Shown: in pieces, positions 220 to 21,975 of the stretch
Position numbering within the stretch: position 1 is the stretch's first letter
Layout: each line of letters opens with the position of its first letter
Program-made: the position numbers and the translations under genes
IMG/VR virus record: IMGVR_UViG_2872698443_000006
Direction: 5' to 3' (one strand)
Length of the DNA stretch: 30,712 bases
From: a virus
Lineage: Duplodnaviria > Heunggongvirae > Uroviricota > Caudoviricetes
Notes under the pieces: generated by a model
Told to the model about the DNA's origin: nothing
Seen by the model: the letters and a program-made list of their open reading frames with translations, nothing else
The model's database searches: none

Positions 220-300
220 CGCGAGCACCTCTTCCGGTTTTGTTGATGGTGCCATTTTAGTTAAATTATCCTTATAAAACAAACAGATAAAATAAAAACA

Positions 301-1464
301 TCACTCATCATCTTCTGTTTCGTACTCCACATCAGAAAGCCTGACCTCAAGCTCTAAGGACGTCGTGAAGCCGCTATTATTCAGAAAATGTGTCACCTTA
401 GTGATTGTCCAGTCCTGCTCGTCTATGACGCGCTTAAAGCCTGACACCTTAACCGGTGTTTCCGTGTAAATATCTGCCCGACCGGTAGCCAGGCTGATGG
501 AGAACTCCGCAACGCCCCGTTGCAGTTTATCCCACTTCGCCTGAGCGGCGCGCATGGCCTGCGCTTTCGTGGCATATACCGTGGTCAGGGCAAAAACATT
601 GTCAGCCTCACCGGCCATGTATTCACCTTCGCGCGCTTCCGGTACTTTTGGCGCTTTCTTCTGCCTGACCGGTTTCGCTTTCGGGTGCTCCAGTGCGCGC
701 AGGTGTTTTTCTTTCTTTTTGCGTTTCAGTTTTACCTTCTGCTTTTGCGGCTTCGGGTCTTTGGTGTGTAACCACTTTGCCGTTACGCCGGTGTAGGCTC
801 CACGGTCAGCAATCGCAAAATGATGGCGGTCGCCGTCACTGCGGGTGATGGTAATCTGCGGGATTTTTTTACCACTGGCCGTCACCCCCTGCCCCGCTTT
901 GAGAAACAGCAGTTTTCCCATTTTTACCGACACCTCACCGCCGTTGCGTTCAGCAAGGCGGGTCAGAAATTTCGCATCAGACTCCTGCGACTGGTCGATG
1001 TGCGGGATTTTAATTCCGGCCAGTGACGGAGCGACACTGGCTTCCAGCCTGTTACGGGAGGCTATCGCCTCAACAATCGCACCGAGCGTGGTGTCATGCC
1101 AGGAGCCTTCCCGGCGGGAATTGAGCGTCCCGCGAAAATCTGCACTCCGGGCGCGGATGGTGACCACATCCGGTGCGCCCCGGTGTTCAACCTCATCAAC
1201 GGTAAATTTCCCTTTGCATACCAGGGCAAAACCTTTCCAGCCGATATACACCGTCAGGACAGCGCCACGAACCGGCAGCCCGACCTGCCCGTCGGCATCG
1301 TTCAGTTCAATATCAAGCTGGTCAGCCTCAAAGCCCCGGTTATCCGTCAGGGTCATGCTCATCAGACGGTCGCTGATATTGCCGGTAATATCCCTGCTGT
1401 CGAGCATCAGCATGTAATCCGGCGTCAGCGTACTGCCTGCATCAAATGTCAGCGCATCCAGCAT
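301..1464 (-). CDS. D: Tail protein D (gpD, P2 late gene D)
   Basis: 387 aa, ATG at 1462-1464; position between U and ogr; lysine-rich KQKVKLKRKKKEK linker; matches P2 gene order. Confidence 0.85.
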   Translation of the reverse strand: MLDALTFDAGSTLTPDYMLMLDSRDITGNISDRLMSMTLTDNRGFEADQLDIELNDADGQVGLPVRGAVLTVYIGWKGFALVCKGKFTVDEVEHRGAPDVVTIRARSADFRGTLNSRREGSWHDTTLGAIVEAIASRNRLEASVAPSLAGIKIPHIDQSQESDAKFLTRLAERNGGEVSVKMGKLLFLKAGQGVTASGKKIPQITITRSDGDRHHFAIADRGAYTGVTAKWLHTKDPKPQKQKVKLKRKKKEKHLRALEHPKAKPVRQKKAPKVPEAREGEYMAGEADNVFALTTVYATKAQAMRAAQAKWDKLQRGVAEFSISLATGRADIYTETPVKVSGFKRVIDEQDWTITKVTHFLNNSGFTTSLELEVRLSDVEYETEDDE

Positions 1465-1943
1465 TATCCCGCCCCCGTCATACCCGTGAATCTGGTCGCC
1501 ATACTGCCAGCCTTACCGATGAGCGATTCCGCCTGTTTACCGATATCGCCATAAAGCGCGGCCAGTGATTCATCAACGCGGGTGAGCGACAGCGTAAAAT
1601 CAATTTTTCGGGGTGTGCCGTCTGCAAAGAAAATACTCCCTGTTTCACTCACCTTACTGATGACATACATGCCGTAAATCATGCCGGTGCCATCCAGCAA
1701 CGGCCACGCCCGACCTTCCTCTGCCATCAGCCTGAGCGTGGTCATCGTCAGCTTGCCGCCGGTCAGTTCGGGATAAAGCACACCGGCAAGCGTGATGTTT
1801 TCCTCACCCACACCGAGAAATTGAAAGGCATCCCGTTTGCCGATACGGGAATTTGACGGCCAGCGATAATCTGATTCACGCTGCATGGTCTGGTGTGGCA
1901 GCGTCTGGCGCATAAAAACAAACATACCTAACGCGAGCATCAT
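1464..1943 (-). CDS. U: Tail protein U (gpU)
   Basis: 159 aa, starts MMLALGMFVF; its start overlaps the T stop region and its stop overlaps the D start (coupled). Confidence 0.85.
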   Translation of the reverse strand: MMLALGMFVFMRQTLPHQTMQRESDYRWPSNSRIGKRDAFQFLGVGEENITLAGVLYPELTGGKLTMTTLRLMAEEGRAWPLLDGTGMIYGMYVISKVSETGSIFFADGTPRKIDFTLSLTRVDESLAALYGDIGKQAESLIGKAGSMATRFTGMTGAG

Positions 1944-1957
1944 TTTTCGTCACCTCC

Positions 1958-4405
1958 TTAACCGTCATGCATCATGCTGGCACGGGCGCGCGCACGTTTA
2001 TCCCGCTCGTATTTTTCGAGCGCATCCTGTAACTGGCGGTCAAGCTGTGTCCCCGGCGCAGTACCACCCGTCAGGCTGATGTGATATTCGTTTTTACTCT
2101 GGTCCACATAAGAGCGGCCAGCCGGTGCCGTGACCGGCTGATAAGCCTGATAGCCTGCATAAGAGCTGGTCGCCGGAATATAACCACCGGTGCCATACGT
2201 GGCGGCATGAGTTCTGGCGGCGGTCTGGTCAAGTGTGTCTGACTCTTTGTTGATGACCCCGAGCTTTTCCAGTACCCAGTCAATACCGCTGCGCAGTTTG
2301 TTGAACGCATTAAGCGGCAGCATCAACGCGTCAGCCAGTGCCTGCCCGAACATGACACCCGTGTCACGACAACGGTTCAGGGTGTCCTGGGTGGCTTTAA
2401 CCGGAGCAATCAGGTTTGTAAACCACTGCCACGCGGCCTGTAACTTTTCGCCCAGCCAGTCAAACACCGGTTTCAGTGGCGTGAACAGTTCCCCCACCGG
2501 CGCAAATGCCGCTTTCAGCCCTTCCACCACACCGCCAAAGAATGCGCTGACAGGCTCCCAGTATTTACGGATAAGCAACGCCCCGGCGACAATTGCAGCC
2601 ACCACGGCCACAACCGGCCAGCTAATCGCCCCGATGGCCGTCATAACAGCACTGCCAACCGTCGTGAAGATTGCCCCCATTGCGCCTGCTGCCGCGATAA
2701 TGGCATTGATGCCGGTGATAACCGGCCAGGCTACAAGACCAATGGCACCGATGATGCCAATAAGCGCCAGCGCGCCACCGACAATGAGGCCGATGGTTGA
2801 CGCCAGTGATTTGTTTTTCTGGATCCAGCCGTCGAGTTTTAACACATACTTTGTGGCCGTCTGAGTGAGCTTACGCAGTGCGCCTTCCTGCTGGTCAAAC
2901 AGGTCTGTCCCCACCGCCTCATAAGCGGACTGAAACTCCTTAAAGTCACCGCCGAGGTTATCCTGCATGATTTTAACCAGCTCTTCCGTTTTACCGTCCG
3001 AGGCTTTCAGCGTGGCGGTCAGCTTATCCAGCTTTCCGCTTGCAGCCGCTGCCAGTAAAACGTTCGCTGATTTCAGGGCTTCCTCACCAAAAATGGTTTT
3101 AAGGTATTCCCCCTTCTGAGACGTTCCCAGCTTGTGTTTATCAAAGCTGGCCTGAATCTCTTTCAGAATGGTGAACAACGGACGCATATTTCCCTTTTTG
3201 TCCGAGGTTTTAACGCCAAGCTCTTTGAGTGCTTCCCATGCTTTCCCTGTCGGAGCCTGTAATCGGGTGACAACGGCACTACTACCAGTACCCGCCATTG
3301 ACCCCCTGATGTTATTGTCATGTAGCACACCGGTCATGGCTGCTGCCTGCTCAAGACTTACACCTGCCGTTCTTGCGACCGGGCCAAGATAAGTCAGTGC
3401 ATCACTGAGTCCCTGAAAATCAGCCGCCGACTTATTCATCGTTGCCGACAACACATCGCCCACATGGCTGACATCATCATTTGACAGTTGAAAAGATGCT
3501 TTAGTCCCCAGCAACAGTTGCGCGTTTTCTTCCATCGACCGCTGATTCGCCAGCGCCATATTCAGCGTGACCGGCGTTGCCGCCTGAATAGCCGCAGCAT
3601 CTCCACCCGCTTTCGCAATGATAATCTGCGCACCGGCCGCATCATCTGCCGAGGCGGCGGTGTTGTCACCGAGCTGGCGCGCCTGCCTGCGGAGTGCAGC
3701 CATTTCGGCGGAGTCTTTTGCCACTCCGAGCACAGCCTGTAATTCTGAGTTTTTCTGCGCAAACTCATAACCGGGCATCAGCAGCTTAACTCCGGCCATC
3801 GTTCCCGCCGCCGCAATCCCCACACCGGCAGAGCCCACCGAGGCCATATTTCCGGCCAGTTCCTTGCCTGCCTGATAACGCTGTTTTACTGCGTTAAGTT
3901 TTGCCTGTTGCGCACTGACACGCGCCAGCGCGTCACGCTGACGGTTAAGCTGTGCGGTGGTTTCACTGATACGGTTTTTCAGCCCCTGCTCATCATGTGC
4001 AAGATTGCGGGTATTAATTCCCACAGCGGCCAGTTCCCGCTGCTGGCGTTTAACGGAATCTGTCAGGCGGTTATATTTCGCCTGTAAGTCCTCCGCCGCA
4101 CGCTTTGCGGATTCCAGCACTTTCGCCTGAGCACGGGTCGGACGTTCGGTGTTTTTAAACTGTGTGGCAAGGGCTTCGGCCTCCTGCCGTGCCTTTTCAA
4201 GTGCATGACCAGTCACGGCGAGCTGTGCACTGGTCTTGCGGAATCCCTCAATACGGGATGCCTGACCGTTCAGCTCGCGCAGTGATTTTTGTGTTTCCCG
4301 GATATCCCCCGACAGCGATTTGCTCGCTGTGCGGATGGATTTAAACGGGCGGGATGCCTGGTCAACAGCCCTGAGCAATACCTGTAATTTTACATTGTTA
4401 CTCAT
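1958..4405 (-). CDS. T: Tail tape measure protein (gpT)
   Basis: 815 aa; coiled-coil-rich N-terminus, Gly/Ala-rich hydrophobic central region (GLIVGGALALIGIIGAIGL...), typical tape measure; ATG at 4403-4405. Confidence 0.9.
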   Translation of the reverse strand: MSNNVKLQVLLRAVDQASRPFKSIRTASKSLSGDIRETQKSLRELNGQASRIEGFRKTSAQLAVTGHALEKARQEAEALATQFKNTERPTRAQAKVLESAKRAAEDLQAKYNRLTDSVKRQQRELAAVGINTRNLAHDEQGLKNRISETTAQLNRQRDALARVSAQQAKLNAVKQRYQAGKELAGNMASVGSAGVGIAAAGTMAGVKLLMPGYEFAQKNSELQAVLGVAKDSAEMAALRRQARQLGDNTAASADDAAGAQIIIAKAGGDAAAIQAATPVTLNMALANQRSMEENAQLLLGTKASFQLSNDDVSHVGDVLSATMNKSAADFQGLSDALTYLGPVARTAGVSLEQAAAMTGVLHDNNIRGSMAGTGSSAVVTRLQAPTGKAWEALKELGVKTSDKKGNMRPLFTILKEIQASFDKHKLGTSQKGEYLKTIFGEEALKSANVLLAAAASGKLDKLTATLKASDGKTEELVKIMQDNLGGDFKEFQSAYEAVGTDLFDQQEGALRKLTQTATKYVLKLDGWIQKNKSLASTIGLIVGGALALIGIIGAIGLVAWPVITGINAIIAAAGAMGAIFTTVGSAVMTAIGAISWPVVAVVAAIVAGALLIRKYWEPVSAFFGGVVEGLKAAFAPVGELFTPLKPVFDWLGEKLQAAWQWFTNLIAPVKATQDTLNRCRDTGVMFGQALADALMLPLNAFNKLRSGIDWVLEKLGVINKESDTLDQTAARTHAATYGTGGYIPATSSYAGYQAYQPVTAPAGRSYVDQSKNEYHISLTGGTAPGTQLDRQLQDALEKYERDKRARARASMMHDG

Positions 4406-4825
4406 TCGTGTTTCCGCTTCGCCGGAGCGCCTTTTCGCGCCATGTGATGAGTTCGGTCAGGCTCATGGGATACAGTTCTGATGGCGGCCAGTGAAATATC
4501 ACTGCCACATCCGCCATCAGGTCATCGACCGAGAGATTTTTCGGAAACGTCACTGCACCGAGTTCGGCGACAAAAAACCGACCACCTTACCGGCCAGCGC
4601 CACAAGGTCAGGCAGTTCCAGTGCGGCGACTTCCTGCTCGGTCAGCATCGGTGCCGTCATGCGCGGCAACACCTTAATCAGTGCATCGACTTCGGAGTTT
4701 GCGACCGCTGCCAGACTGACACCGCGCAGCGTCCCGGCATTGGGTTTCATCAGCGTGACCTGTTCGATAACCTGCTCACCACGTTTGACCGGATTGTCCA
4801 GGGTAATCACATTTTCTTTGTTCAT
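4398..4825 (-). CDS. E': Tail assembly chaperone E+E' made by programmed -1 frameshift
   Basis: Slippery run GGUUUUUUG on the mRNA (reverse complement of 4571-4579) sits in codons G-F-L of E. Translating the -1 frame from there by hand gives an open frame (VAELGAVTFPKNLSVDDLMADVAVIFHWPPSELYPMSLTELITWREKALRRSGNTNE) that ends at TAA 4398-4400, overlapping the T start. Total 142 aa, the size I recall for P2 E+E'. Confidence 0.7.
4550..4825 (-). CDS. E: Tail assembly chaperone E (gpE)
   Basis: 91 aa ending ...KVVGFLSPNSVQ; lies directly upstream of T as in P2 FETUD operon. Confidence 0.85.
   Translation of the reverse strand: MNKENVITLDNPVKRGEQVIEQVTLMKPNAGTLRGVSLAAVANSEVDALIKVLPRMTAPMLTEQEVAALELPDLVALAGKVVGFLSPNSVQ
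4571..4579 (-). promoter_or_regulatory. -1 ribosomal frameshift slippery site (G GUU UUU UG)
   Basis: Seen directly: six consecutive A on the + strand give a U6 run in the E mRNA at the position where the E' frame opens. Confidence 0.65.
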
Positions 4826-4881
4826 GGTTTTCTCACTTCTTAATCAGGGTTAACCGGTCAGCCAGGCTGACCGGATGAAAA

Positions 4882-5400
4882 TCACAGGCCGATATTGCGG
4901 CGGTGTTGCTCCAGCCGGTCGACGCCGTTCACCTTCTCAATCATGTTGATGGTGTCGATTTCGACCAGCTCCTTACCGTCCATCGTCAGCCGGAAATAGG
5001 TGCATACCACGGAGATTTTCGACTCGGTGTCTTCTCCCTGTTTCCCCTCGCCGGTGTCGATTTCTTTCTGACGGCCACGCATGACCACCTCGACGGCCAC
5101 CGTTTCGCCGGTATCGTCGCGCTGGTAAGAGCCTGCAAAACGAATCGGCACGGCATCCACACCGGTTGCGGCGTAAAGCTCCCAGATAACCGAATCCGGG
5201 AAGCCCCCGAGCGACCACTCCATTGACAGCGCATCGTCATCAAGGCCGAGGTCTACCGGTGCGCTGCCGTTCATCCCCGCACCTCGATAGTTTTCGAGCT
5301 TACGGGTCAGTTTTGGCAGCGTGACGGACTTTGCAACGCCCTGATAGCTGTAGCCGTTCAGAAAGACGTTCATTAACTTGAGTTTGCGCGGCATTGCCAT
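4882..5400 (-). CDS. FII: Tail tube protein FII
   Basis: 172 aa, MAMPRKLKLMNVFLNGYSYQGVAKSVTLPKL...; contractile tail tube family; follows FI. Confidence 0.9.
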   Translation of the reverse strand: MAMPRKLKLMNVFLNGYSYQGVAKSVTLPKLTRKLENYRGAGMNGSAPVDLGLDDDALSMEWSLGGFPDSVIWELYAATGVDAVPIRFAGSYQRDDTGETVAVEVVMRGRQKEIDTGEGKQGEDTESKISVVCTYFRLTMDGKELVEIDTINMIEKVNGVDRLEQHRRNIGL

Positions 5401-5412
5401 CGGTCAGGCTCC

Positions 5413-6603
5413 TTAATTGCTGTTAACCGAGGTGACCAGATTTGCCAGGTATTTATCGGTAATACGCTGGCGCAGGGTCAGGTTTTCAAGAGGAGGCACC
5501 GGGGTATAGTCGTAGTCGATATACAGTTTTCCGGCCTTAAGGGTTTCCGCATCGTTGGATTCTTCGCTGAACCAGCAGGTCGCATCCACGATATAGCCGT
5601 TTGTTTTCAGCTCACGGAATTTGGCATTGATGCCGTCAACGATGTCGCGAATCAGCGTTGCGGTGATAGGCTTGTCCACCGCCCACATGTGCGCTTCAGC
5701 CATCGTGTCGGCCAGCACCTGCGCGGTGCGGGTGTAGTTTTCAAAGAGGAACAGCGGGTCATCCGAGCAGGTACGGTTACCCCAGAATCGGAAACCGTCA
5801 CGGCGAATCAGCGTAGTGACGCCTGACTCGTTAAGCAGGTCAGCATCGGTGCCGGACTCCTGCAAATCCCAGAATACAGATGCGCTGATGCCGGTAACAC
5901 CGTTCACCCCGACGTTGGACAGCGTTTTATGCCAGCCCTGCTCCTGGTCGATTTTAGCGCGCAGCCCCAGCGCACGGGCGGTGGCATACGCGGTGGCGGT
6001 GGTACTGGTGACCGTATCCCATGCGAGGAAATCCGGCCAGATGACCATCAGCTCACGCTGGCTGAAATTCTGGCGGTAGGCTTTCACCTCGGAAATGGTC
6101 TTACAGCCCCATGCGCTGATATACCCGAAAGCGCGCAGCTTCTGACAGACGGATGCCAGTGCAACAGCCACCTCTTTGGTGTCCAGTCCCGGCACACCGA
6201 GAATACGCGGTTTAACACCGGTTACCGACTCTGCCGCCAGCAGGGCTTTCAGTCCGGTGTACTGACCGTTTTCGTCGGTGGTGCCGATGATATTGGAAAC
6301 GGTCTGCGCAAGTTTCGTTTCTTCGTCGTCGCCGGTGCCGTCCTCCACGCGCACAACAACGGTGACCGGTTTTGACTGGTCGGCGATGGCCTGCAACGAT
6401 GCCGCCAGCGTGCCTTTTTTACCGGCCTTTGCAATTGCACTCTGCACATTGGTAATCAGCACCGGTTTATTGAGGGGGAAGGATTCCGCATCCGCATCGC
6501 TGGCCGTACAGACCATGCCAACAATGGCCGTGGATACGGTGGAAATGACGCGGGTGCCGTCGTTAATCTCCAGCACCTGCACGCCGTGATGATAGTCACT
6601 CAT
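5413..6603 (-). CDS. FI: Contractile tail sheath protein FI
   Basis: 396 aa, MSDYHHGVQVLEINDGTRVISTVSTAIVGMV...; ATG at 6601-6603 with GGAG upstream. Confidence 0.9.
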   Translation of the reverse strand: MSDYHHGVQVLEINDGTRVISTVSTAIVGMVCTASDADAESFPLNKPVLITNVQSAIAKAGKKGTLAASLQAIADQSKPVTVVVRVEDGTGDDEETKLAQTVSNIIGTTDENGQYTGLKALLAAESVTGVKPRILGVPGLDTKEVAVALASVCQKLRAFGYISAWGCKTISEVKAYRQNFSQRELMVIWPDFLAWDTVTSTTATAYATARALGLRAKIDQEQGWHKTLSNVGVNGVTGISASVFWDLQESGTDADLLNESGVTTLIRRDGFRFWGNRTCSDDPLFLFENYTRTAQVLADTMAEAHMWAVDKPITATLIRDIVDGINAKFRELKTNGYIVDATCWFSEESNDAETLKAGKLYIDYDYTPVPPLENLTLRQRITDKYLANLVTSVNSN

Positions 6604-6662
6604 CCGTTTAACTCCGTGGTTAATGGGTGAGTGGTATTTTCAGTTGTGCCGGAGATGTCAGG

Positions 6663-7256
6663 CTATTTGTCCCGGTTGGCTAAGGGATGACACAATTTAT
6701 TCTTTGTCGCTGATGAGGGGAATTTTTTATAGAGCGTGGACAGGCCAATATCAAAAATCAGCGCCACACGTTGACGAGATTCCCCCGCAGCCAGCAACCG
6801 TCCGACCTGCTCCCACTCACTCGCGGTGAGTTTCGGACGTCTGCCACCAATACGACCTTTGGCTCTGGCCGCTTCCAGTCCGGCGCGTGTCCGCTCGACA
6901 ATGAGTTCTCGCTCCATTTCAGCCAGGGCACCCATCACATGAAAGAAAAAACGCCCCATCGGCGTGCTGGTATCAATAGCATCCGTCAGACTGCGAAAAT
7001 TAACGCCGCGTTCGCGCAGTTCCTCAACCAGAATGACCAGATGCCGCATACTACGCCCCAGCCTGTCCAGCTTCCAGACTACCAGAGTGTCACCTGCTGA
7101 TAATGTTCTGAGCAGTTTTTTCAGTCCCGGTCGGTCGGACTTCGTGCCGCTGATTTTATCCTCAAAAATCCGCTCGCATCCTGCGCACTCCAGCGCGTTA
7201 CGCTGCAATTCCGTGTTCTGGTCATTTGTTGATACGCGGACATAGCCAATAAGCAT
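6663..7256 (-). CDS. Serine recombinase, DNA invertase of the Hin/Gin/Pin/Cin family
   Basis: 197 aa, MLIGYVRVSTNDQNTELQRNAL...VVWKLDRLGRSMRHL...MGRFFFHVMGALAEMERELIVERT...IGGRRPKLT: catalytic serine context (YVRVSTNDQ) and C-terminal HTH, near-identical in pattern to E. coli Pin as I recall it. Confidence 0.9.
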   Translation of the reverse strand: MLIGYVRVSTNDQNTELQRNALECAGCERIFEDKISGTKSDRPGLKKLLRTLSAGDTLVVWKLDRLGRSMRHLVILVEELRERGVNFRSLTDAIDTSTPMGRFFFHVMGALAEMERELIVERTRAGLEAARAKGRIGGRRPKLTASEWEQVGRLLAAGESRQRVALIFDIGLSTLYKKFPSSATKNKLCHPLANRDK

Positions 7257-7311
7257 GATGGATCCCCTGAATAAAAACCGGGGATGATGCCAGTTAGCCG
7301 TAATCTCTGCA

Positions 7312-7337
7312 TTTTCTTAAACGTTGGTTTGGGAGAA
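7312..7337. repeat. Invertase crossover site, right (26 bp, hix/gix-like), core TT at 7324-7325
   Basis: TTTTCTTAAACG TT GGTTTGGGAGAA: imperfect palindrome of two 12-bp halves around a 2-bp core, resembling hix/gix (TTC..AAACC..GGTTT..GA.AA). Lies inside the alternative fibre segment reading frame. Confidence 0.7.
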
Positions 7338-7799
7338 GGTGCTCCAGCTATTGGCGTTCCGTTCTTCTGGCCGTCCGCCGCAATGCCAGATACCGTAATC
7401 GAAAGCTGGTCCGGCATGGTGTTTTTGAAGTTCAACGGCGCGAAATTCTCTGCCACTGATTACCCTGTGCTGGCGAAAGTGTTTCCTTCGCTGGTATTAC
7501 CTGAAGCCCGCGGTGATTTCATTCGTATCTGGGATGATGGTCGTGGTGTAGATAGTGGACGTGGATTACTTAGTACGCAGTCTGACCTGATGAAACAATT
7601 TACTTTGCAATACTACGGTCCTTCTGCTGGTACTGGAACAAGAACGGTTTTCGCCCTCCAGAGTAATGCGAACGGCATATATACGAGTGGTATTAGTCAG
7701 AATGATGGTAGTGGCACCGCTGCGGCTTTTAATGTACCAGGCGGCACCGAAACACGCCCACGTAACATTGCATTCAACTTTTTAGTAAGGGCTAAATAA
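7323..7799 (+). CDS. Alternative tail-fibre C-terminal (variable) segment, expressed only after inversion
   Basis: Frame open from the crossover site: ...FLNVGLGEGAPAIGVPFFWPSAAMPDTVIESW...; inversion would fuse H ...LAYL to GLGEGAP... in frame (the codons spanning the core are cTT in H and gTT here). The ATG at 7284 is probably not used. Confidence 0.65.
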   Translation, partial: VGLGEGAPAIGVPFFWPSAAMPDTVIESWSGMVFLKFNGAKFSATDYPVLAKVFPSLVLPEARGDFIRIWDDGRGVDSGRGLLSTQSDLMKQFTLQYYGPSAGTGTRTVFALQSNANGIYTSGISQNDGSGTAAAFNVPGGTETRPRNIAFNFLVRAK

Positions 7800-8392
7800 T
7801 GAAACCTGTTTTTGATAAAAATGGGCTGGCTACAGTGCCGGGTGATATGCGTTGTTTTTATTATGATGCAGTAACGTCTGAATATACTGGCTGGTCTGAT
7901 GAATATATTAATACTGGTGTAAGTATGCCCGCCTGTTCCACTGGTATTGACCCGGGCGAATACATTCCGGGGAAAGTGGCAGTATTTACGGGTAAGGGAT
8001 GGAGCCATGAAGAAGACCACCGCAATGAGACTGCTTACTCAATCGAAAATGGCGCAGCTGTTACAGTGGATTATATCGGTGCCATCAAAGACGGTTATGT
8101 CACGCTTTCACCGTTAACGCCATACGATAAATGGGATGGTGAGAAATGGGTGACAGATACTGAGGCACAGCATAGTGCCTCAGTAGACGCGGCAGAAGCA
8201 CAGCGCCAGTCGCTGATTGATGCTGCAATGGCTTCCATCAGTCTGATTCAACTGAAATTGCAGGCCGGGCGGAAGCTGACGCAGGCAGAAACAACCCGAC
8301 TTAACGCCGTGCTGGATTACATTGACGCGGTGACGGCAACAGATACCAGCACCGAGCCGGATATCATCTGGCCTGAACAGCCGGAGGCGTAG
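7799..8392 (+). CDS. Alternative tail fibre assembly protein (Tfa)
   Basis: 197 aa; C-terminus ...LNAVLDYIDAVTATDTSTEPDIIWPEQPEA shares the conserved Tfa C-terminal motif with the other tfa (..FDYLDALEMVDISSAPDIEWPTPP). ATG overlaps the TAA of the preceding segment. Confidence 0.75.
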   Translation: MKPVFDKNGLATVPGDMRCFYYDAVTSEYTGWSDEYINTGVSMPACSTGIDPGEYIPGKVAVFTGKGWSHEEDHRNETAYSIENGAAVTVDYIGAIKDGYVTLSPLTPYDKWDGEKWVTDTEAQHSASVDAAEAQRQSLIDAAMASISLIQLKLQAGRKLTQAETTRLNAVLDYIDAVTATDTSTEPDIIWPEQPEA

Positions 8393-8798
8393 GCCATTCA
8401 ATATCTGGAGCACTGGAAATATCAACCATTTCCAGTGCGTCCAGATAATCAAACCAGGCGTTCAAAAGTGCTTCTTCATCTGGCTTGATGCGTTTGAGCG
8501 CCAGTCTTGTCCGTAGCATCTCTGTTTCCGATTTCACTTCTGATATCAGAAATACTTTTTTGACTTCCGCCTGATGCACCAATTCCTCATGGGTAGGCAG
8601 AGTGACATTCACCCAGGCAGGTCGACCTTTGACACTACCGAGTTCTTTTCCTTCCGGAGCCGGTTTCATCCAGTATTTATCACGCTCTGAATCCGTCAGT
8701 TTAACGATATCGTCCGGCCATGTTCCGGCGGCGATATAGCCGTCTTTCATATCCAGAGGATAAAACGCCAACGTTGTGGCTGAGAAGCACATATCCAT
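8364..8798 (-). CDS. G: Tail fibre assembly protein (gpG-like Tfa)
   Basis: 144 aa MDMCFSATTLAFYPLD...APDIEWPTPPAVQAR; directly downstream of H; its 3' end overlaps the convergent alternative tfa by 29 nt. Confidence 0.85.
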   Translation of the reverse strand: MDMCFSATTLAFYPLDMKDGYIAAGTWPDDIVKLTDSERDKYWMKPAPEGKELGSVKGRPAWVNVTLPTHEELVHQAEVKKVFLISEVKSETEMLRTRLALKRIKPDEEALLNAWFDYLDALEMVDISSAPDIEWPTPPAVQAR

Positions 8799-8800
8799 AA

Positions 8801-10231
8801 TTAAAATCCTATCGCTAGCCAGGTGGTGGCGTTATTATCGGGAAGGAGCACTCTGTCTGATGTGTTGCTTAACACGCAAATCTGTGTGGCATTAAATCCG
8901 ACATTCGTTATAGCATTAGCTGTCCACACTGATGTCGTTTGTCCGCCGCCCGGCGAAGACTCGCCGACAAACAGTGGTGGTCTTGTGAAAGCCACCGGGA
9001 ATTTTACGTAGATATCCGTTGATGTAACCTCTGACATCCCCCACTGTATAATCATGCCGGACGGTAACTTCTGATATCCATTAGTTGACGGTGAACTACC
9101 AAAATCAGCAGGTAGCCCGCGCACCAAATCGGCATCAAGCCCTGACCCGGAACCATCAACCTGAAGCAGTTTTGTCAGTATTGCCTGCGCCGTTACCTGT
9201 TCTTCAAGAGCAAGACTTCCTCCTTTGTTTTGCAGATATACGTATTTTGCGGCACCGTCGACTTTAAAAGCGATAGCAAATTGTTTCTTCTGTTCATCAT
9301 ATGCCAGCCAAAGACTATCCTCTGGCCTGCCAGACTCAAACACGAAAGTCGAGAATCTGTTATCTGTCTTATCTCTCTTCAGGTTCAGTAATTCCGGTAA
9401 ACCAAGGTATGCGAGAAGACCGGCAACATCCTTTCCACTCAAATGAGTCAGCGTCTCATCCAGTGGCTGCTTACCTGACAGCGCATTGTTAATGGTGGTG
9501 CTGAATTTCGGGTCATTGTTAATGGCCGCGGCAATTTCTTTCAGTGTGTCCAGTGTGGCTGGCGCACCGTTAATCAGAGCGGTAATAGCGGCCTGAACAA
9601 ACTCAGTGGTCGCAATCCGCGTGGTGTTATTTCCTGCGGCAGGCGTCGGCGCTTTTGGTTCTCCGGTAAATGTCGGATTATGTTTCTGTGCATACTGGGT
9701 ATGAGGATCCTGTGCGGCAATGTGGTTTCTCATCTGGTCATCCACATACAGCCTTAATTCCAGGACTTCATCATCCACGTATTTACGGGTCGCCAGTACC
9801 ACCGACGGGTCGATTTTCAGCGTAATAGCTTCGGTATTCGTGACAACCAGAATCATGCGGATAGTCTGGGTACGACCACTGCCTTCCTGCAACTGCGGTT
9901 TGTACGTTTCCGGGCAGTTTGCCACCGCAATGAGTACGCCTTCATCATCATAAAGCCCAATCTCACGGATCCAGAATCCGCCCTCGTTCTCAGGGATGAT
10001 TTGCTCCGCAATAATCTGGCTCTGGTTATTCGGGTCAACACTCAGAAGATTCAGCGGTGCAATGCGTTTCTGGTTAATCAGTTTTGTCTGTGCCGGGTCT
10101 GGTGTCGGCAAGACACCATTCGCATCACCAACGGCCATTTGCGTCAGATTCAGCTTACTGCCGAGCATCGTCGCGTTAGCCAGCCGTGCTGCGCCCTGAT
10201 TAGTCAGAATGGCGTAGTATTTCACTGTCAT
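8801..10231 (-). CDS. H: Tail fibre protein H (constant N-terminal part plus currently expressed variable C-terminal part)
   Basis: 476 aa, MTVKYYAILTNQGAARLANA... typical P2 H N-terminus; crossover site at codons for LAYLGLPEL. Confidence 0.9.
   Translation of the reverse strand: MTVKYYAILTNQGAARLANATMLGSKLNLTQMAVGDANGVLPTPDPAQTKLINQKRIAPLNLLSVDPNNQSQIIAEQIIPENEGGFWIREIGLYDDEGVLIAVANCPETYKPQLQEGSGRTQTIRMILVVTNTEAITLKIDPSVVLATRKYVDDEVLELRLYVDDQMRNHIAAQDPHTQYAQKHNPTFTGEPKAPTPAAGNNTTRIATTEFVQAAITALINGAPATLDTLKEIAAAINNDPKFSTTINNALSGKQPLDETLTHLSGKDVAGLLAYLGLPELLNLKRDKTDNRFSTFVFESGRPEDSLWLAYDEQKKQFAIAFKVDGAAKYVYLQNKGGSLALEEQVTAQAILTKLLQVDGSGSGLDADLVRGLPADFGSSPSTNGYQKLPSGMIIQWGMSEVTSTDIYVKFPVAFTRPPLFVGESSPGGGQTTSVWTANAITNVGFNATQICVLSNTSDRVLLPDNNATTWLAIGF
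9392..9417. repeat. Invertase crossover site, left (26 bp, hix/gix-like), core AA at 9404-9405
   Basis: TTCCGGTAAACC AA GGTATGCGAGAA inside gene H; very close to my recollection of Mu gixL (TTCCTGTAAACCGAGGTTTTGGATAA). The core is the complement of the other site's core, i.e. the sites are in inverted orientation. Confidence 0.75.
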
Positions 10232-10839
10232 GCGTTTACTCTCAGGTTATCAATTAAATGAATGGCCGAGGCCGGGAAATAATCCCCTCCGACAATAATG
10301 GCCTCCGGGGTGTAGGGATAAACCGTCAGGGCGTCGCCGTGATAGCATCCCGCACCGGCAAAAATGTTGCCGGTTGTACTTAAACTGATAGCCAGTCCCG
10401 TCAGATGGCGGCTTGCCGGTTTTGCATCAGCAACGAGACGCTCCAGCTCCTGATACATTTCCTCGGTAATACCCTGCTCAAGCACGCCAACAACGATGCG
10501 GAACGTCCCCGGCGCCTCGTTGAGCTGCCACCACTCCCTCACCTCAATCAGATAGCCGAGCTGCTCCACCACACGGCGAATCGCACCAATAGTGCCCTTA
10601 TGGCAGTGAATGAAATACGCATCGCGGATAACAGCGCGTTTTGTCGCTTCCGGCCACTTATCATCCCAGCGGTCAACCGAAAATGACCACGCCAGCCACG
10701 GCAGCAGATTTGCCGGGCAGGTGTCCGGGTTCCACAGCTCACGAATACTGACCGGCGTTTTTTCAATTTCCGCACAGGCTTTTGCGGCGGCAACTTCAAG
10801 CGGTGATGAGCCGGTCGGCAGCAGGCGCGAATCACTCAT
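10228..10839 (-). CDS. I: Baseplate assembly protein I
   Basis: 203 aa; ATG 10837-10839 preceded by GGAGG; overlaps J stop and H start (ATGA coupling). Confidence 0.8.
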   Translation of the reverse strand: MSDSRLLPTGSSPLEVAAAKACAEIEKTPVSIRELWNPDTCPANLLPWLAWSFSVDRWDDKWPEATKRAVIRDAYFIHCHKGTIGAIRRVVEQLGYLIEVREWWQLNEAPGTFRIVVGVLEQGITEEMYQELERLVADAKPASRHLTGLAISLSTTGNIFAGAGCYHGDALTVYPYTPEAIIVGGDYFPASAIHLIDNLRVNA

Positions 10840-11740
10840 CCGAGCCTCCGGTCACGACGCTGTATTCGGTGCAGAAAGACGCCTGCGTACTGTTGAGCAC
10901 AATGTCAGCCAGAGGTGCAGTCAGTTCGACACGCTGCACGCCTTCCACATGCAAAGCGGCATAAATGGCAGACAGACGGATGTCGCGCCCAAGCCGGTGC
11001 TGTGCCGTGATGTACGCTTCCAGTTTTTTCACGGCAGCAGCGCGGATGGGTTCGCTTTCAGGACCTGGGTAAAGGTAAAGCGTGGCATTTATCTGATATT
11101 CAACAATGGCGGCAGACTGCACGGTCACGCGGTCGGCCACCGGCCTGACGTCCTCGCCATTAAGGGCGTTACGCACCACGGCCAGCAGGTCTTCGGATGC
11201 GACGCCGTTATTTTCACGTGACAGCACGGAGATAGTGACGCAGGCCGGAGACGGACTGGTGACAGAGATATCCGCGACACGCCCGTCAGCACTGCGACCA
11301 TGATACTGATAGGCTCCCACCGACCCGGCGACGCTTAAGCCCTCAAACGCCTGCTGAATACGCAGACGATAATCGGTGTCAGATTCCATCACTGCCGGTG
11401 TCGGCGGGATAGTCGAATCATCTGCCGGGGTGATAATCAGGCGCGTGGTGTTGTAATTGGCACCAATCACATCAAGGTCATTACCGGCGGCACAGGCCAG
11501 CATCACCGCCCGTGCGGCCTCATTCACACGCTGACGCCAGATAAGCTCACGATAAGCATTTTCCTCCAGAAGTTTGACGAGAGGCTCGGATTCCAGCGTC
11601 AGGGTACGGGCGACCGCCTCCTGCTGGTCTTCCGGGTAAAGGGAAATCAGTGTCGCCTTGCGTTCAGCGAGAATGGTTTCAAAGTCCAGCTCCTCGACCA
11701 CATCCGGTGCGGGTAGCTTGTTCAGGTCGATAATCGGCAT
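10832..11740 (-). CDS. J: Baseplate protein J (gp6-like)
   Basis: 302 aa, same length as P2 gpJ as I recall; position between W and I. Confidence 0.85.
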   Translation of the reverse strand: MPIIDLNKLPAPDVVEELDFETILAERKATLISLYPEDQQEAVARTLTLESEPLVKLLEENAYRELIWRQRVNEAARAVMLACAAGNDLDVIGANYNTTRLIITPADDSTIPPTPAVMESDTDYRLRIQQAFEGLSVAGSVGAYQYHGRSADGRVADISVTSPSPACVTISVLSRENNGVASEDLLAVVRNALNGEDVRPVADRVTVQSAAIVEYQINATLYLYPGPESEPIRAAAVKKLEAYITAQHRLGRDIRLSAIYAALHVEGVQRVELTAPLADIVLNSTQASFCTEYSVVTGGSDE

Positions 11741-11744
11741 GGTT

Positions 11745-12092
11745 TCAACTCACAGGGATGGTTAACGAAAGTGGCTGGCCGGTGTCGTTGTGCTGACCGG
11801 TTAACGTGACCGTCATTCGCCCGTCAAAACTGCGCGCCGTGGTGACGGATGACAGGGTGACGCGGGGTTCCCATTTCAGCACCGCCATGTAACAGGCGAC
11901 CTTAATCTGCAACTCAAGCGCCGGAGTCTGCGGCTGGTCAATCATTGACGCCAGCAACGAGCCGTAATCACGACGCATCACCCGTGAGCCGACCGGTGTG
12001 CGCAGGATATCGCCGATACTCTGGCTGATATGCTCAGGGTCAGTGACAGTCAGGCCATCACTGCGATTCATTCCGAGATAACGTGCTGTCAT
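11745..12092 (-). CDS. W: Baseplate protein W (gp25-like)
   Basis: 115 aa MTARYLGMNRSDGLTVTDPEHISQSIGDILRTPVGSRVMRRDYGS..., gp25/lysozyme-like baseplate wedge pattern. Confidence 0.85.
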   Translation of the reverse strand: MTARYLGMNRSDGLTVTDPEHISQSIGDILRTPVGSRVMRRDYGSLLASMIDQPQTPALELQIKVACYMAVLKWEPRVTLSSVTTARSFDGRMTVTLTGQHNDTGQPLSLTIPVS

Positions 12093-12724
12093 AGAGGACT
12101 CCCGGTTGTGCCGCCGCTGTCTCCTGGGTGTTTATGGGTATGCAGTACCTTACCGTTTGATGAGAGTTCACCACCGGTATGTTCAATGTTGCCGTGCATC
12201 GTTCCGCCCTTCTGCACTTCCAGCGTGCCGGTAGTCAGTTTGTTAGTGCAGACCACTTCCGGTGTGTCCAGGGTGACACGGGTTGACGCTTTCACCGTGA
12301 CCACCGGCACCGTGGCGGTAACAGAATCAGAAGCCGTCACGCTGGCCGTTTTAATTCCGCTTACCGTCAGTGCACTGGTTTCAGGTTCATACTCAATCAC
12401 CGCCCCGTCAGGGAAACGGATATGCAGGGCATCCGCCGACGCAGACGGCGGAGGGTTATCGCCGGAATAAATCCCCGGAAGAACGAACGCCGTGTCGAGT
12501 TCACCGCCCACGGCCAGAATCAGCACCTGCTCCCCCACGGAAGGTGCCCACCATGTGCGCGAACGTCCGGCGCGATGGGTCAGCCACTGAAGCCAGTCGG
12601 TGCACATGCCGCCGGTCTGCACACGGCAGCGACCGGCGTTAAGGTCGGTTTCGACGATAATGCCGGTGCGAATCATGTTGCGCAGTGCGCGCGCGAGTTC
12701 CTGAATATTTGCGAGAGTGTTCAT
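12089..12724 (-). CDS. V: Baseplate spike / assembly protein V
   Basis: 211 aa; ATGA overlap with W; position matches P2. Confidence 0.85.
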   Translation of the reverse strand: MNTLANIQELARALRNMIRTGIIVETDLNAGRCRVQTGGMCTDWLQWLTHRAGRSRTWWAPSVGEQVLILAVGGELDTAFVLPGIYSGDNPPPSASADALHIRFPDGAVIEYEPETSALTVSGIKTASVTASDSVTATVPVVTVKASTRVTLDTPEVVCTNKLTTGTLEVQKGGTMHGNIEHTGGELSSNGKVLHTHKHPGDSGGTTGSPL

Positions 12725-12790
12725 AACGGGAAGGATGCCGCCGGGTCATACCGGCGGCAATGTGACGATGAGGTGTCAGGAATGGCACAA

Positions 12791-13243
12791 CTAACGGTCG
12801 AGGTGAGCCAGAATAATCTCTTCAATCATCTGCACATCCTCACCGGTAAAGCCGAGCAGAGGACGCGCCGGATAATCAATTTTCTTACCGTCTTTCCGGT
12901 TTTCTTCCGACAGACCGAACTGATGCACGCTGGCGATTTTCGGTGACTTCCCGCCGTAAAACTCCATTGATGCCTGTTCCGGGCTGGCGCGGATATGCAA
13001 AAAACGACTGGTGATAAGTTTCGCAAACATTTTTCGCTTAACACGACCGGTCTTTTTTCTGGCGCTCTGCTGCTGGCGTGGCGCGTAGGGTGTGCCGTCC
13101 GGGGCTTTCTGTGCCATCACCCGACGCTGCTGACTCTGACGCAGACGTTTCGCCAGTTCGGCACTCAGTCGTCGACGCCCTGACGGTGACAGCGACTCAA
13201 TCAGTCCGGTCAGCCGGTCTTCAAAACGCTTAAACTCATTCAT
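12791..13243 (-). CDS. S: Tail completion protein S
   Basis: 150 aa MNEFKRFEDRLTGLIESLSPSGRRRL...; overlaps R stop. Confidence 0.8.
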   Translation of the reverse strand: MNEFKRFEDRLTGLIESLSPSGRRRLSAELAKRLRQSQQRRVMAQKAPDGTPYAPRQQQSARKKTGRVKRKMFAKLITSRFLHIRASPEQASMEFYGGKSPKIASVHQFGLSEENRKDGKKIDYPARPLLGFTGEDVQMIEEIILAHLDR

Positions 13244-13703
13244 CCCACTTGCTCACCAGTTCGCCATTGATATACAGCTCCATCGGGCGGGTGACCGGCT
13301 CCGGCGGCGGGGGTTCCGGGATATTCTTCACATGCAGCGCGCCGTCCACCTCACTGACCAGCGTGCGCTCGGTCAGCATCAGGCTGATGCTGATATCAAA
13401 GCTGCTGTCATTGTTGATGTCCGCATAAAACGTGAAGCCCTTTTTCTGGCCTGCGTCGGTGGTCATGATGTCGGGCTGATTTTCCCGCAGCCACGCCAGC
13501 ACCGGCACGATGAGCAGGTCAAAATCACCGGTAAAGTCGGTCACAATCACATTGAGCGTGTAACGCTTTTCGAATGACAACGACGTCGCCAGCGTGGAGG
13601 CAATACTCCCGTTATCAACGAATATCCGCAGCATCTCGGGACTGGTTTTCAGCACCGTGACGGCATCAGTCAGCGCCCTGCGCAGGCTGTCGGGTTTGAG
13701 CAT
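13236..13703 (-). CDS. R: Tail completion protein R
   Basis: 155 aa MLKPDSLRRALTDAVTVLKTSPEMLRIFVDNGS... Confidence 0.8.
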   Translation of the reverse strand: MLKPDSLRRALTDAVTVLKTSPEMLRIFVDNGSIASTLATSLSFEKRYTLNVIVTDFTGDFDLLIVPVLAWLRENQPDIMTTDAGQKKGFTFYADINNDSSFDISISLMLTERTLVSEVDGALHVKNIPEPPPPEPVTRPMELYINGELVSKWDE

Positions 13704-13956
13704 CGTTTTCGTCCTGACAGTGTTTAATCATTTTTACCTGGCTGGCACAGCGTGCCAGCGCGTTCTCAAGCTGCCGGATATCGGCACTTAAATCGCCGTT
13801 CTTCTGCGGGTCACTGCCCGGCATCGGGCAAAGGCTCACTTTCGGGCAGGCGTTGTGGACAATCACTGGCGTCAGTGCAGGCGGGGCGCTGGTGCAACCG
13901 GCGCACAGCATCAGGCAGGTCAGCACCATACCAGCGGCGAAAATCTTCGTTTTCAT
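13666..13956 (-). CDS. lysC: LysC, Rz1-like outer-membrane spanin lipoprotein, nested in a different frame within lysB
   Basis: Internal ATG at 13954-13956 gives MKTKIFAAGMVLTCLMLCAGC...: signal peptide with lipobox LCAGC; embedded in the 3' part of lysB and running into R, as in P2. Confidence 0.65.
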   Translation of the reverse strand: MKTKIFAAGMVLTCLMLCAGCTSAPPALTPVIVHNACPKVSLCPMPGSDPQKNGDLSADIRQLENALARCASQVKMIKHCQDENDAQTRQPAQGAD

Positions 13957-14236
13957 TAAGTAACCTCGTGATGGTTTTCTCGCGCTGTGCTTCACGCTTC
14001 GCGGCGTTTTCCAGTTCCTGACGCAGTGCCACCTGCGCCAGCTCGTTTTTGTCTGCCCTGGTGAGGGCAACATGAAGCTGATTTTTCAGCATGGTGATGG
14101 TCACCTGCTGTTCACTGGCGACGTTGTTCGCCCTGTCCAGCGAGGCGCGCAGGCTGGCGTTTTCATGCTTCACCAGAAACAGCCCCGCCACCGCCAGCGA
14201 TAACAACACAACCAGCACAATCATCAGCCTTGACAT
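13811..14236 (-). CDS. lysB: LysB, Rz-like inner-membrane spanin
   Basis: 141 aa from ATG 14234-14236 (the ORF-track start is a TTG five codons upstream): MSRLMIVLVVLLSLAVAGLFLV... N-terminal TM then coiled-coil region. Confidence 0.8.
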   Translation of the reverse strand: MSRLMIVLVVLLSLAVAGLFLVKHENASLRASLDRANNVASEQQVTITMLKNQLHVALTRADKNELAQVALRQELENAAKREAQREKTITRLLNENEDFRRWYGADLPDAVRRLHQRPACTDASDCPQRLPESEPLPDAGQ

Positions 14237-14648
14237 GGTTCCCGCCCCCAAGACGCTGACGGCAGGCCGTACGTATCAGCCGGAAAAACAGCGACGCCAC
14301 AAGATAAATCAGCGCAGTAAAAATCCACCCGGCAGCGACCAGCGAGATAAACGTCGCCACCATCACTACCAGAGCCACTGACCGCCTGCGCCACGGCACC
14401 GGCTGCAAAAACAGCGCCGTGACAATCTTCACGGCCAGCGATTCCGGCGGCAGCTCCCGCCCGTAGCGTTCCAGCACATACTCAGTGGCATACACGCCGA
14501 CACCACCGGCAACCACACAGATAACCGTCACCAGAATCGCCCAGGCGGCGACAAAATTGACGTCCACGCTCTGCGGGTAAATCAGGGACAGTGCCAGCAT
14601 CAGCGCCAGCGACACGTTCAGCATCAGTGAAAGGGATAATTTCTTCAT
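14163..14648 (-). CDS. lysA: LysA-like membrane protein (lysis timing)
   Basis: 161 aa with four hydrophobic helices; sits between K and lysB as in P2. Confidence 0.7.
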   Translation of the reverse strand: MKKLSLSLMLNVSLALMLALSLIYPQSVDVNFVAAWAILVTVICVVAGGVGVYATEYVLERYGRELPPESLAVKIVTALFLQPVPWRRRSVALVVMVATFISLVAAGWIFTALIYLVASLFFRLIRTACRQRLGGGNHVKADDCAGCVVIAGGGGAVSGEA

Positions 14649-14662
14649 GGTATTTACTCCGT

Positions 14663-15160
14663 TTAAGCCGGTACGCCGCCGGCGGTACGCCAGACGGTGA
14701 CCAGTTTTTCCAGTGAATGCTCACGCTGACCGTAACCGGCACCCGGCAGGGACGCCCAGATATTGCGACAGCGTGAAATGGCGCGCTCAATGCGTCCCGC
14801 CCTGATGTCATCCAGCGCCCCGCGTTCGCGGATCAACTGAATGGCGAGTCTGTCCTGTGACAACGGACTGAAATCCGGCAGGGCAAGCTGTTTGCGGTAA
14901 TGCGGCCAGAACAGGTAAAGCTGCTGATAGCGACCGGAGGCCGTGGATTTTTCACCGCGACGGTTAAACACCTTCGCCGGTCGGCCATGTGCGAACGGGT
15001 GGTCACTGTAGTCGGTGAAGATTTCCGGCTTTCCATCCAGTCCGGTGACTATCACGTCATAGCCCCGGTTTTTCGTCAGCGGATGGTTTGCCGTCCCTTC
15101 GGACACGGCCAGCATGTCGAGAAAGGCGGCGATATTCTGATGCGTGTTAATAACCGGCAT
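14663..15160 (-). CDS. K: Endolysin K (lysozyme)
   Basis: 165 aa MPVINTHQNIAAFLDMLAVSEGT...: lambda R/P2 K-type lytic transglycosylase N-terminal motif (E in VSEGT). Confidence 0.9.
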   Translation of the reverse strand: MPVINTHQNIAAFLDMLAVSEGTANHPLTKNRGYDVIVTGLDGKPEIFTDYSDHPFAHGRPAKVFNRRGEKSTASGRYQQLYLFWPHYRKQLALPDFSPLSQDRLAIQLIRERGALDDIRAGRIERAISRCRNIWASLPGAGYGQREHSLEKLVTVWRTAGGVPA

Positions 15161-15441
15161 TACGGTTTCCCCCTGCCCTTAAAGCGGCGCTGAATGGCAA
15201 TCTCAATCACCTGATAACCGGCGATACCCAGCATGGAGCCGATGCCGCACACCGCAGGCAGTGACAGGTCAGGAAACTGCACCAGAACAACACCGGCAAC
15301 CATCGAGACAAAACCACCGAGCAACATGCGCCCGATAAACAGACGCGGGGTGATGGGTTCACCACCGGCAAGCACCTTGCCGACAACAATCAGCACCCCA
15401 ATCATGAAAAGCGACAGGACGCTTTTTTCTTCTGCTGTCAT
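15160..15441 (-). CDS. Y: Holin Y
   Basis: 93 aa with three hydrophobic segments and a charged C-terminus (RRFKGRGKP); its TAA overlaps the K ATG. Confidence 0.85.
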   Translation of the reverse strand: MTAEEKSVLSLFMIGVLIVVGKVLAGGEPITPRLFIGRMLLGGFVSMVAGVVLVQFPDLSLPAVCGIGSMLGIAGYQVIEIAIQRRFKGRGKP

Positions 15442-15444
15442 GCG

Positions 15445-16157: not shown

Positions 16158-16256
16158 GACTACCTCTGAAAAGTCGGGCGGTGGACGCCGGTGCAGTGTC
16201 AGGTGATTCACCCTCACTGACCGGCGTGCCGCCCTGGCGCGGGGCGCATTCGGTTG

Positions 16257-17000: not shown

Positions 17001-17003
17001 CGG

Positions 17004-18077: not shown

Positions 18078-18135
18078 AGTTTTTCCTGAAATTAAGGGTT
18101 AATCGTGAAGGTTTTCCCGGACTGACTGACGCCGG

Positions 18136-21970: not shown

Positions 21971-21975
21971 ACATC

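Follow-up and report, generated by a model that had tools for sequence, protein, structure and literature searches.

In the G segment of phage Mu (invertase Gin) and the C segment of phage P1 (invertase Cin), a constant fibre part, Sc, is joined to a variable part, Sv or Sv', each with its own U or U'. The invertase gene lies just beyond the segment and ~68 bp from the centre of a crossover site, and the crossover site encodes a ...LGL... motif. The P segment of e14, a cryptic prophage of E. coli K-12 that carries the invertase PinE, sets a gp53-like tip and its TfaP-like chaperone against a collar-type tip and its TfaE-like chaperone. P2-like loci in EPEC E2348/69, pro483 and 'Escherichia phage P2' from O157:H43 T22 have such a cassette between the fibre genes and FI. 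The EPEC locus has been proven by sequencing and PCR to invert in culture; EPEC has two such loci, one of them with three repeats and four states (Goldberg et al., 2014; PMC4272514). The Z/fun slot of P2 is a hotspot in which an invertase is often present (preprint 10.1101/2024.10.15.618418). An invertible tail-fibre switch in P2-like E. coli prophages is already well documented and the arrangement is common: among complete E. coli genomes, ~10% have the sheath end, invertase and site in one piece.

The window, by which we mean the whole 30,712-nucleotide stretch of DNA that was analysed, follows the P2 gene order (ogr-D-U-T-E-FII-FI ... H-I-J-W-V ... Q), with all of these late genes intact. 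P2 has fun(Z) on the opposite strand, a fixed H/G pair and no invertase between G and FI, whereas in the window an invertase ORF lies between FI, the gene for the sheath, and H, the gene for the tail fibre. Alignment with P2 places this ORF in the same slot, between G and the pF promoter. We consider it highly probable that the locus is a tail-fibre switch with two states, driven by its invertase and of the same type as Mu G, P1 C and e14 P, at the Z/fun place of an apparently intact P2-like prophage. Its features are as follows.

6663-7256, minus strand: serine DNA invertase of the Pin/Gin/Hin/Cin family (ORF of 197 aa with Pfam domains)
6663-6700, minus strand: 3' tail of the invertase gene (last ~12 codons), overlapping the P2 late promoter pF in its upstream part with the Ogr/activator site (seen by alignment to pF as annotated in P2)
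7137-7235, minus strand: putative recombinational enhancer (Fis sites) in the invertase 5' coding region, assigned by homology to hin/gin/cin
7284-7799, plus strand: ORF of 171 aa (from the ORF list) that begins outside the segment and continues across site 1 into whichever tip is silent
7312-7337, unstranded: crossover site 1, beside the invertase, TTTTCTTAAACG TT GGTTTGGGAGAA, with the central TT at 7324-7325
7326-7799, plus strand: silent alternative C-terminus of the fibre, a collar-domain tip with 157 aa beyond the site (PDB 2xgf, T4 gp37 tip, 8.9e-9)
7799-8392, plus strand: tfa' for the silent tip, 197 aa, TfaE-like chaperone (Caudo_TAP, 9.9e-27)
8364-8798, minus strand: tfa for the expressed tip, 144 aa, TfaP-like chaperone (Caudo_TAP, 7.7e-26)
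8801-10231, minus strand: tail-fibre gene H (ORF of 476 aa)
8801-9403, minus strand: expressed variable H C-terminus, ~200 aa, gp53-like C domain (PF21882, 8.7e-11; PDB 4mtm, 1.4e-4)
9392-9417, unstranded: crossover site 2, within gene H (codons ~272-280, ...AYLGL...), TTCCGGTAAACC AA GGTATGCGAGAA, with the central AA at 9404-9405
9406-10231, minus strand: constant N-terminal part of fibre H, ~275 aa, P2 H-like tail-collar fibre N domain (PF12571, 1.6e-62)

Judged by its domains and alignments, the enzyme is a Din-family (Hin/Gin/Cin/Pin) invertase. It has an N-terminal catalytic domain (Pfam Resolvase, PF00239; 7.7e-53) and a C-terminal DNA-binding domain (HTH_7, PF02796; 5.4e-13, residues 138-181), and its length is in keeping with the ~180-200 aa of the family. 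It is closest to e14 PinE (86% identity), with 81% protein identity to the EPEC P2-like invertase and 80% to Mu Gin. The ZF34 protein WP_000905108.1 is 100% identical, and the pro483 gene is ~95% identical at the DNA level. The N-terminus MLIGYVRVSTNDQ, Ser9 included, is the same in PinE and Gin. The catalytic positions of the Din family (the nucleophilic Ser9, with Y5, R7, D64, R65 and R68) are unchanged across the PinE and Gin alignments. The two domains and the identity to PinE bear out the Pin-like serine invertase of the original prediction, and the alignment with P2, which has no invertase in this slot, agrees with its proposal that the switch replaces the P2 Z/fun locus.

The two crossover sites are 26 bp each, are mutually inverted and share a matching central dinucleotide, the two-site arrangement of Din systems. 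A consensus scan gave one match (0.00 expected), and a pattern made from sites 1 and 2 themselves gave two (0.09 expected). The proximal site is shared in identical form with the EPEC E2348/69, pro483 and O157:H43 T22 loci, which also have an equal gene order and differ in their tip sequences; it differs by one base from the e14 proximal site. Compared with gix, cix and hix, the sites match at 19-20 of 26 bases. The window has two sites only, unlike the four-state EPEC locus: no third site, as in a shufflon-like system, was found in the window or in ZF34, where a 207-bp tandem duplication accounts for the added length. A generic repeat finder gave 7583-7604 / 9275-9296 (22 nt, 82%) as its longest inverted repeat, which was rejected as a crossover site because it lacks a site-like core and the inversion in ZF34 breaks at other positions.

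The invertible segment spans 2106 bp with both sites, or ~2080 bp from centre to centre. Site 2 splits the fibre gene into a constant N-terminus (42% identical to the P2 H N-terminus) and alternative in-frame C-termini; inversion in silico keeps the frame of H and converts the 476 aa protein into an H' of 433 aa. An assembly gene of its own follows each tip, and the two are opposed in orientation. The tips are unrelated in sequence and belong to different fold families, one gp53-like C and the other collar or T4 gp37-tip-like. The expressed tip has almost no homologue among 50,697 phage records, and a look-up of the H protein for exact matches gave none. A match annotated 'StfP' suggested that it was K-12 e14 StfP, but direct comparison showed only a short gp53-like motif. 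The silent tip shares 41% identity with e14 StfE and at most 64% with tips in E. coli phage records (lambdoid, P2-like and others); it shows no similarity to those of P2 H, Mu S or Mu S'. The C-terminus encoded by tfa is identical to that of TfaP, and tfa' is 61% identical to TfaE. The convergent 3' ends of tfa and tfa' share 29 bp, a convergent overlap also present in e14, and the central block is 93% identical to that of e14.

The locus has the pairing of tips and chaperones of the e14 P segment. The e14 prophage, however, is defective, its fibre gene is truncated and its segment measures 1.8 kb, whereas here the cassette lies within an intact P2-type tail operon; the tips have also diverged, with only a marginal local match to StfP. 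The constant and variable fibre parts, the placing of the invertase and the motif encoded by the crossover site are shared with Mu and P1. The Mu G segment differs in being 3 kb long, in having tips without similarity to those here and non-overlapping tfa genes, and in belonging to another phage backbone.

Evidence that the segment has inverted in nature comes from complete E. coli genomes. The junction inverted in silico matches ZF34 and ZF31 at 601 of 601 bases, while the junction in the orientation of the window had no match covering at least 80% of it among 5,426 complete genomes. The ZF34 prophage is collinear with the window at 99.3% identity over 1-7330 and 99.9% over 9399-22223, with 7324-9408 reversed and a breakpoint at 9399-9408. 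Its proximal site is a hybrid, TTCCGGTAAACC-AA-CGTTTAAGAAAA, in which the inner half of site 2 of the window and the outer half of site 1 are fused at the central AA. Half-site exchange at the central dinucleotide is the signature of recombination by serine invertases. The annotated H of ZF34 has 433 aa, the same length as H'. The comparison, which is made from prophage to prophage and not within one culture, shows at the level of aligned sequences a natural inversion, by exchange at the central dinucleotide and at the predicted cleavage point, between near-identical prophages. The original prediction had described a 2.1-kb segment with two fibre C-termini and two opposed tfa genes, ending at 9417, and a switch of the Mu G / P1 C type. 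The 2106-bp segment, the Caudo_TAP domain in both tfa products, the exact outer end of site 2 at 9417, the Mu G / e14 P architecture and the flip in ZF34 at the predicted site centres all agree with it. ZF34 is a flipped twin of this prophage and CUVET17-1418 a cassette-swapped twin. With these twins the locus is one more well-resolved example, showing the diversification of P2-like tips via a Din-family cassette at the Z/fun hotspot, and it raises no new question.

In the proposed mechanism, dimers of the invertase would bind both 26-bp sites and, by analogy with Hin and Gin, would assemble with host Fis on an enhancer in the 5' end of the invertase gene. Both sites would be cut at the central AA/TT and the ~2.08-kb segment inverted. 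The segment does not include the constant 275-aa N-terminus of H, so each orientation would fuse this N-terminus to a different tip and would bring the Tfa chaperone gene belonging to that tip immediately downstream. The orientation seen here would give the H of 476 aa with the gp53-like tip and the TfaP-like chaperone, and the other the H' of 433 aa with the collar-type tip and the TfaE-like chaperone; gene H as annotated here is thus one of two products. With different tips in the two orientations, a lysogen population would release two kinds of virion, presumably with different receptor specificities and hence different host ranges. The host-range switch is real and, from its sequence, probably working. 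The anatomy, the conserved frame, the intact enzyme and the natural inversion between near-identical prophages are seen directly, whereas the rate of flipping, the dependence on Fis and an enhancer, and the difference in host range are inferred.

A different reading of the same anatomy is that the cassette came from an e14-like or Mu-like source and is now frozen, with a poorly expressed invertase or a degenerate site 2, leaving in effect one fibre. The outer half of site 2, GGTATGCGAGAA, does deviate from the family consensus GGTTTnnGAnAA, a sigma-70 promoter scan upstream of the invertase gave no consensus match (the sole promoter-like element is a conserved extended -10-like TGGCATCAT), and the window holds one orientation only. 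The flipped ZF34 copy, however, carries the same half-site. Recombination at these sites postdates the split between the window and ZF34 prophages, whose flanks are still 99.3-99.9% identical; the intact invertase ORF matches that of ZF34 at 100% identity, and both the silent tip and tfa' remain unbroken and in frame. Homologous EPEC loci, moreover, flip in culture (PMC4272514). We regard a frozen cassette as very improbable, and retain the two-state switch.

The ORF at 7284-7799 bears on what the switch is for. If it is read from the ATG at 7284/7287 through site 1, the product would be a free tip protein, which together with its Tfa might mask outer-membrane receptors against other phages, a role in the lysogen instead of, or besides, virion host range. 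There is a precedent in e14, where StfE2, formed after PinQ/PinE inversion, is reported to block the adsorption of other phages by masking receptors (PMC12529663), and the annotations of e14, pro483, ZF34, CUVET17-1418 and Mu include counterpart ORFs that start ~30 nt from the invertase. Against this, the scan found no promoter-like site on the plus strand upstream of 7284, and 13 codons without a stop are to be expected by chance. The conserved ATG reads, in reverse complement, as the conserved TGGCATCAT and is more simply explained as part of the -10 region of the invertase. The prophage is also intact, and the classical virion role therefore suffices. It is very unlikely that this ORF is made in the lysogen as a free receptor-binding protein, giving a phase-variable block to adsorption as claimed for StfE2, and a lysogen role for the switch is likewise very unlikely; if true, the switch would be a defence for the host as well as a host-range device for the phage. 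Under the preferred two-state fibre switch, the '171-aa tail fibre protein' ORF corresponds to the silent tip and is no gene in its own right.

Din-family invertases act with a Fis-dependent enhancer in cis, inside the 5' part of the invertase gene. In the corresponding region here, the block GTATCAACAAATGACCAGAA is unchanged in the window, pinE, gin, pro483 and ZF34, and a motif scan placed G-N13-C motifs, candidate Fis sites, at +22 and +71 of the invertase gene. By analogy with the family, inversion of this segment would be expected to depend on Fis and the enhancer. At the other end of the gene, alignment with the annotated P2 pF region shows P2 homology starting at ~6693, and on this alignment the region is the left edge of the inserted cassette. 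The pF region of the window is nearly identical to that of P2, and 13 additional C-terminal residues of the invertase derive from read-through into the P2 pF sequence.

The window is a P2-like prophage whose first end is the ogr end and whose late genes are all intact. Its tail genes and the fibre locus are laid out as follows, where H is the tail-fibre gene in the window orientation, tfa and tfa' are assembly chaperone genes and site 1 is the crossover site adjoining the invertase.

1958-4405, minus strand, T (tape measure)
4398-4825, minus strand, E/E'
4882-5400, minus strand, FII
5413-6603, minus strand, FI (sheath)
6663-7256, minus strand, invertase, 197-residue ORF
from site 1, plus strand, alternative C-terminus, 157 codons; resembles the T4 gp37 tip collar region (PDB 2xgf, 8.9e-9)
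7799-8392, plus strand, tfa', 197 residues, after the alternative tip; Caudo_TAP, 61% identical to TfaE
8364-8798, minus strand, tfa, 144 residues, after the expressed tip; Caudo_TAP
8801-10231, minus strand, H
8801-9403, minus strand, expressed variable C-terminus of H, ~200 codons; gp53-like C domain (PF21882, 8.7e-11; PDB 4mtm, 1.4e-4)
beyond H, minus strand, I, J, W and V

Between G and FI, P2 has a terminator, an oppositely oriented fun(Z) and the pF activator site, in this order, and its annotated sequence has no invertase in this region. The original prediction that the cassette replaces P2 Z/fun is thus right positionally: it occupies the fun(Z) slot. Homology to P2 is regained at ~6693, exactly where the pF activator lies, and the invertase gene finishes, over its last ~12 codons plus stop (6663-6700), in sequence nearly identical to the P2 pF promoter/Ogr activator site. 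The protein is 13 residues longer than PinE of e14, the cryptic prophage of E. coli K-12, because these last ~12 codons are P2 promoter sequence; judged from this match, the C-terminal extension is an incidental result of where the insertion is joined to P2 sequence. Transcription of the invertase gene leads directly into the FI operon promoter (6663-6700).

The invertase contains Resolvase catalytic (7.7e-53) and HTH_7 (5.4e-13) domains (Pfam), has 86% identity to e14 PinE and 80% to Mu Gin, and shares with both the N-terminus MLIGYVRVSTNDQ, which includes the Ser9 nucleophile. The stretch homologous to the recombinational enhancer is conserved: GTATCAACAAATGACCAGAA is invariant across the window, pinE, gin, the P2-like phage pro483 and the prophage of E. 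coli ZF34, and G-N13-C motifs are present at gene positions +22 and +71; this conserved stretch is a candidate enhancer. The invertase ATG is preceded at 27 nt by a conserved TGGCATCAT that resembles an extended -10 element. A consensus promoter scan gave no match there.

Site 1 (TTTTCTTAAACGTTGGTTTGGGAGAA, 7312-7337) was matched in a scan with the 26-bp family consensus (0.00 chance matches expected), and site 2 (TTCCGGTAAACCAAGGTATGCGAGAA, 9392-9417) was found by reading the sequence. No third copy was present in the 30.7-kb window with a pattern derived from both sites (0.09 chance matches expected). The central dinucleotides are TT in site 1 (7324-7325) and AA in site 2 (9404-9405), and the sites are therefore in inverted orientation. 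Their centres are ~2080 bp apart, and the segment measures 2106 bp with both sites included, in line with the 2.1 kb first proposed; the interval originally marked, 6663-9417, is bounded exactly by the invertase stop codon and the outer edge of site 2. This second site falls within H, at about codon 275, and codes for ...AYLGL.... The window H has ...LAYLGL (residues 272-280) at the crossover site, the non-inverting P2 H has ...IEYLGLQETVN... (residues ~377-386) and the counterpart in Mu S is ...NLGLQETV at gixL. The YLGL stretch of P2 H looks like a fossil crossover site.

The two chaperone genes are convergent and overlap by 29 bp (8364-8392). Inversion of 7324-9405 in silico keeps the frame and gives a product, H', of 433 residues; together with the two Caudo_TAP genes, this bears out the claim of two alternative fibre C-termini and two tfa genes in opposite orientations. 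The alternative tip is 41% identical to e14 StfE. The expressed gp53-like tip occurs in E. coli prophages, but among 50,697 phage records it was matched just twice, weakly and over part of its length (32-39% over 100 residues); 8801-9403 is a receptor-binding tip so far unrepresented in isolated phages.

Evidence for inversion comes from a comparison between two strains. The ZF34 prophage is collinear with the window over 1-7330 (99.3% identity) and 9399-22223 (99.9%), whereas 7324-9408 is reversed (98.7%). Its invertase is 100% identical to that of the window, and its H is annotated at 433 residues, the same length as the in silico H'. The inverted junction predicted in silico was matched at 601 of 601 bases in ZF34 and ZF31, and in 45 of 5426 complete E. 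coli genomes at a coverage of at least 80%; the window-orientation junction (9105-9705) had no match at this coverage in the same genomes. The invertase-side site of ZF34, TTCCGGTAAACC-AA-CGTTTAAGAAAA, consists of the inner half of window site 2 and the outer half of site 1 joined at the central AA, the product predicted for a staggered cut by a serine invertase at the central dinucleotide. That the cassette is a frozen relic which no longer flips in this prophage is unlikely, since its parts are intact and a flipped twin exists.

In the Hin/Gin/Cin systems both sites are bound by dimers, and an enhancer that carries Fis and lies within the 5' part of the invertase gene assembles the invertasome; cleavage at the central 2 bp followed by subunit rotation inverts the segment. 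By analogy, dimers of the window invertase would bind sites 1 and 2, an invertasome would be built with Fis on the candidate enhancer in the 5' region of its gene, and central 2-bp cleavage and subunit rotation would flip the segment.

In the ZF34 fibre, a ~207-bp (69-residue) unit with which the gp53-like variable region starts is duplicated in tandem (14013-14436 of that record); the window has one copy (9189-9399). The two fibres differ here in repeat number, just past the crossover site; the duplication accounts for the extra length, and a third recombination site in ZF34 was rejected.

The annotated layout of pro483 (Peduovirus) is identical to that of the window locus, and the invertase likewise adjoins FI in the P2-like phage from O157:H43 T22, phage S164 and Salmonella phage MET_P1_103_31. 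The end of the sheath gene, the invertase and site 1 form a single contiguous stretch in 546 of 5426 complete E. coli genomes. A DNA invertase is frequent in the P2 Z/fun hotspot, with adjacent genes inverted (2024 preprint, 10.1101/2024.10.15.618418), and two P2-like prophage loci of EPEC E2348/69 invert in culture, as seen by sequencing and PCR (Goldberg et al., 2014; PMC4272514). One of these (2977580-2979467) has the window's gene order beside the sheath gene, an invertase 81% identical to that of the window and an identical proximal site. The e14 P segment is of the same cassette type, with a gp53-like tip and TfaP-like chaperone facing a collar-type tip and TfaE-like chaperone. The proposed switch is thus supported by the in-frame tips, the flipped ZF34 twin, the e14-type cassette and the EPEC precedent. 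The locus is real and was rightly interpreted, and it is already known, given the pro483 layout, the 546 genomes, the EPEC inversion, the hotspot description and the e14-type cassette.

A role in lysogen-side defence, modelled on the report on e14 StfE2 (PMC12529663), is conceivable because an ORF from the ATG at 7284 crosses site 1 and continues into the silent tip. However, the promoter scan gave no signal for this ORF, and a simpler reading of the conserved ATG is that it is the complement of the putative invertase -10 element.

The backbone of E. coli CUVET17-1418 matches that of the window at 100% identity as far as 7338 and at 99.2% from 9399 onwards, and its invertase is the same protein as in the window and ZF34 (WP_000905108.1), but its tips differ; backbone homology thus stops at the crossover sites. 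Within the segment the two share only a central 346-bp block (8111-8456) formed by the 3' ends of tfa and tfa', including the 29-bp overlap. Identity over this block is 92-93% for e14, pro483, CUVET17-1418 and one EPEC locus and 85% for the other, while the surrounding tips differ. The pattern suggests that the crossover sites and the central block serve as joints for half-cassette swapping, the block probably by homologous recombination.

Elsewhere, the window gene at 14211-14648 is 93% identical to its ZF34 counterpart (annotated merely as 'DNZ54_00345 family protein') with a five-residue indel, whereas its neighbours are 100% identical. The P2 old/tin hotspot (22223-24842), between the portal gene Q (20936-21970, plus strand) and the replication gene A (24824-27151, minus strand), differs between the window and the otherwise ~99% identical ZF34, which has an RNA-directed DNA polymerase gene there. 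The window ORFs at 22302-23000 (232 residues) and 23205-23960 (251 residues) had no Pfam or PADLOC match, and a 107-residue ORF also had no match; the protein at 24372-24860 has ASCH/DUF3850 and DUF7415 domains. The hotspot may hold uncharacterised defence cargo.
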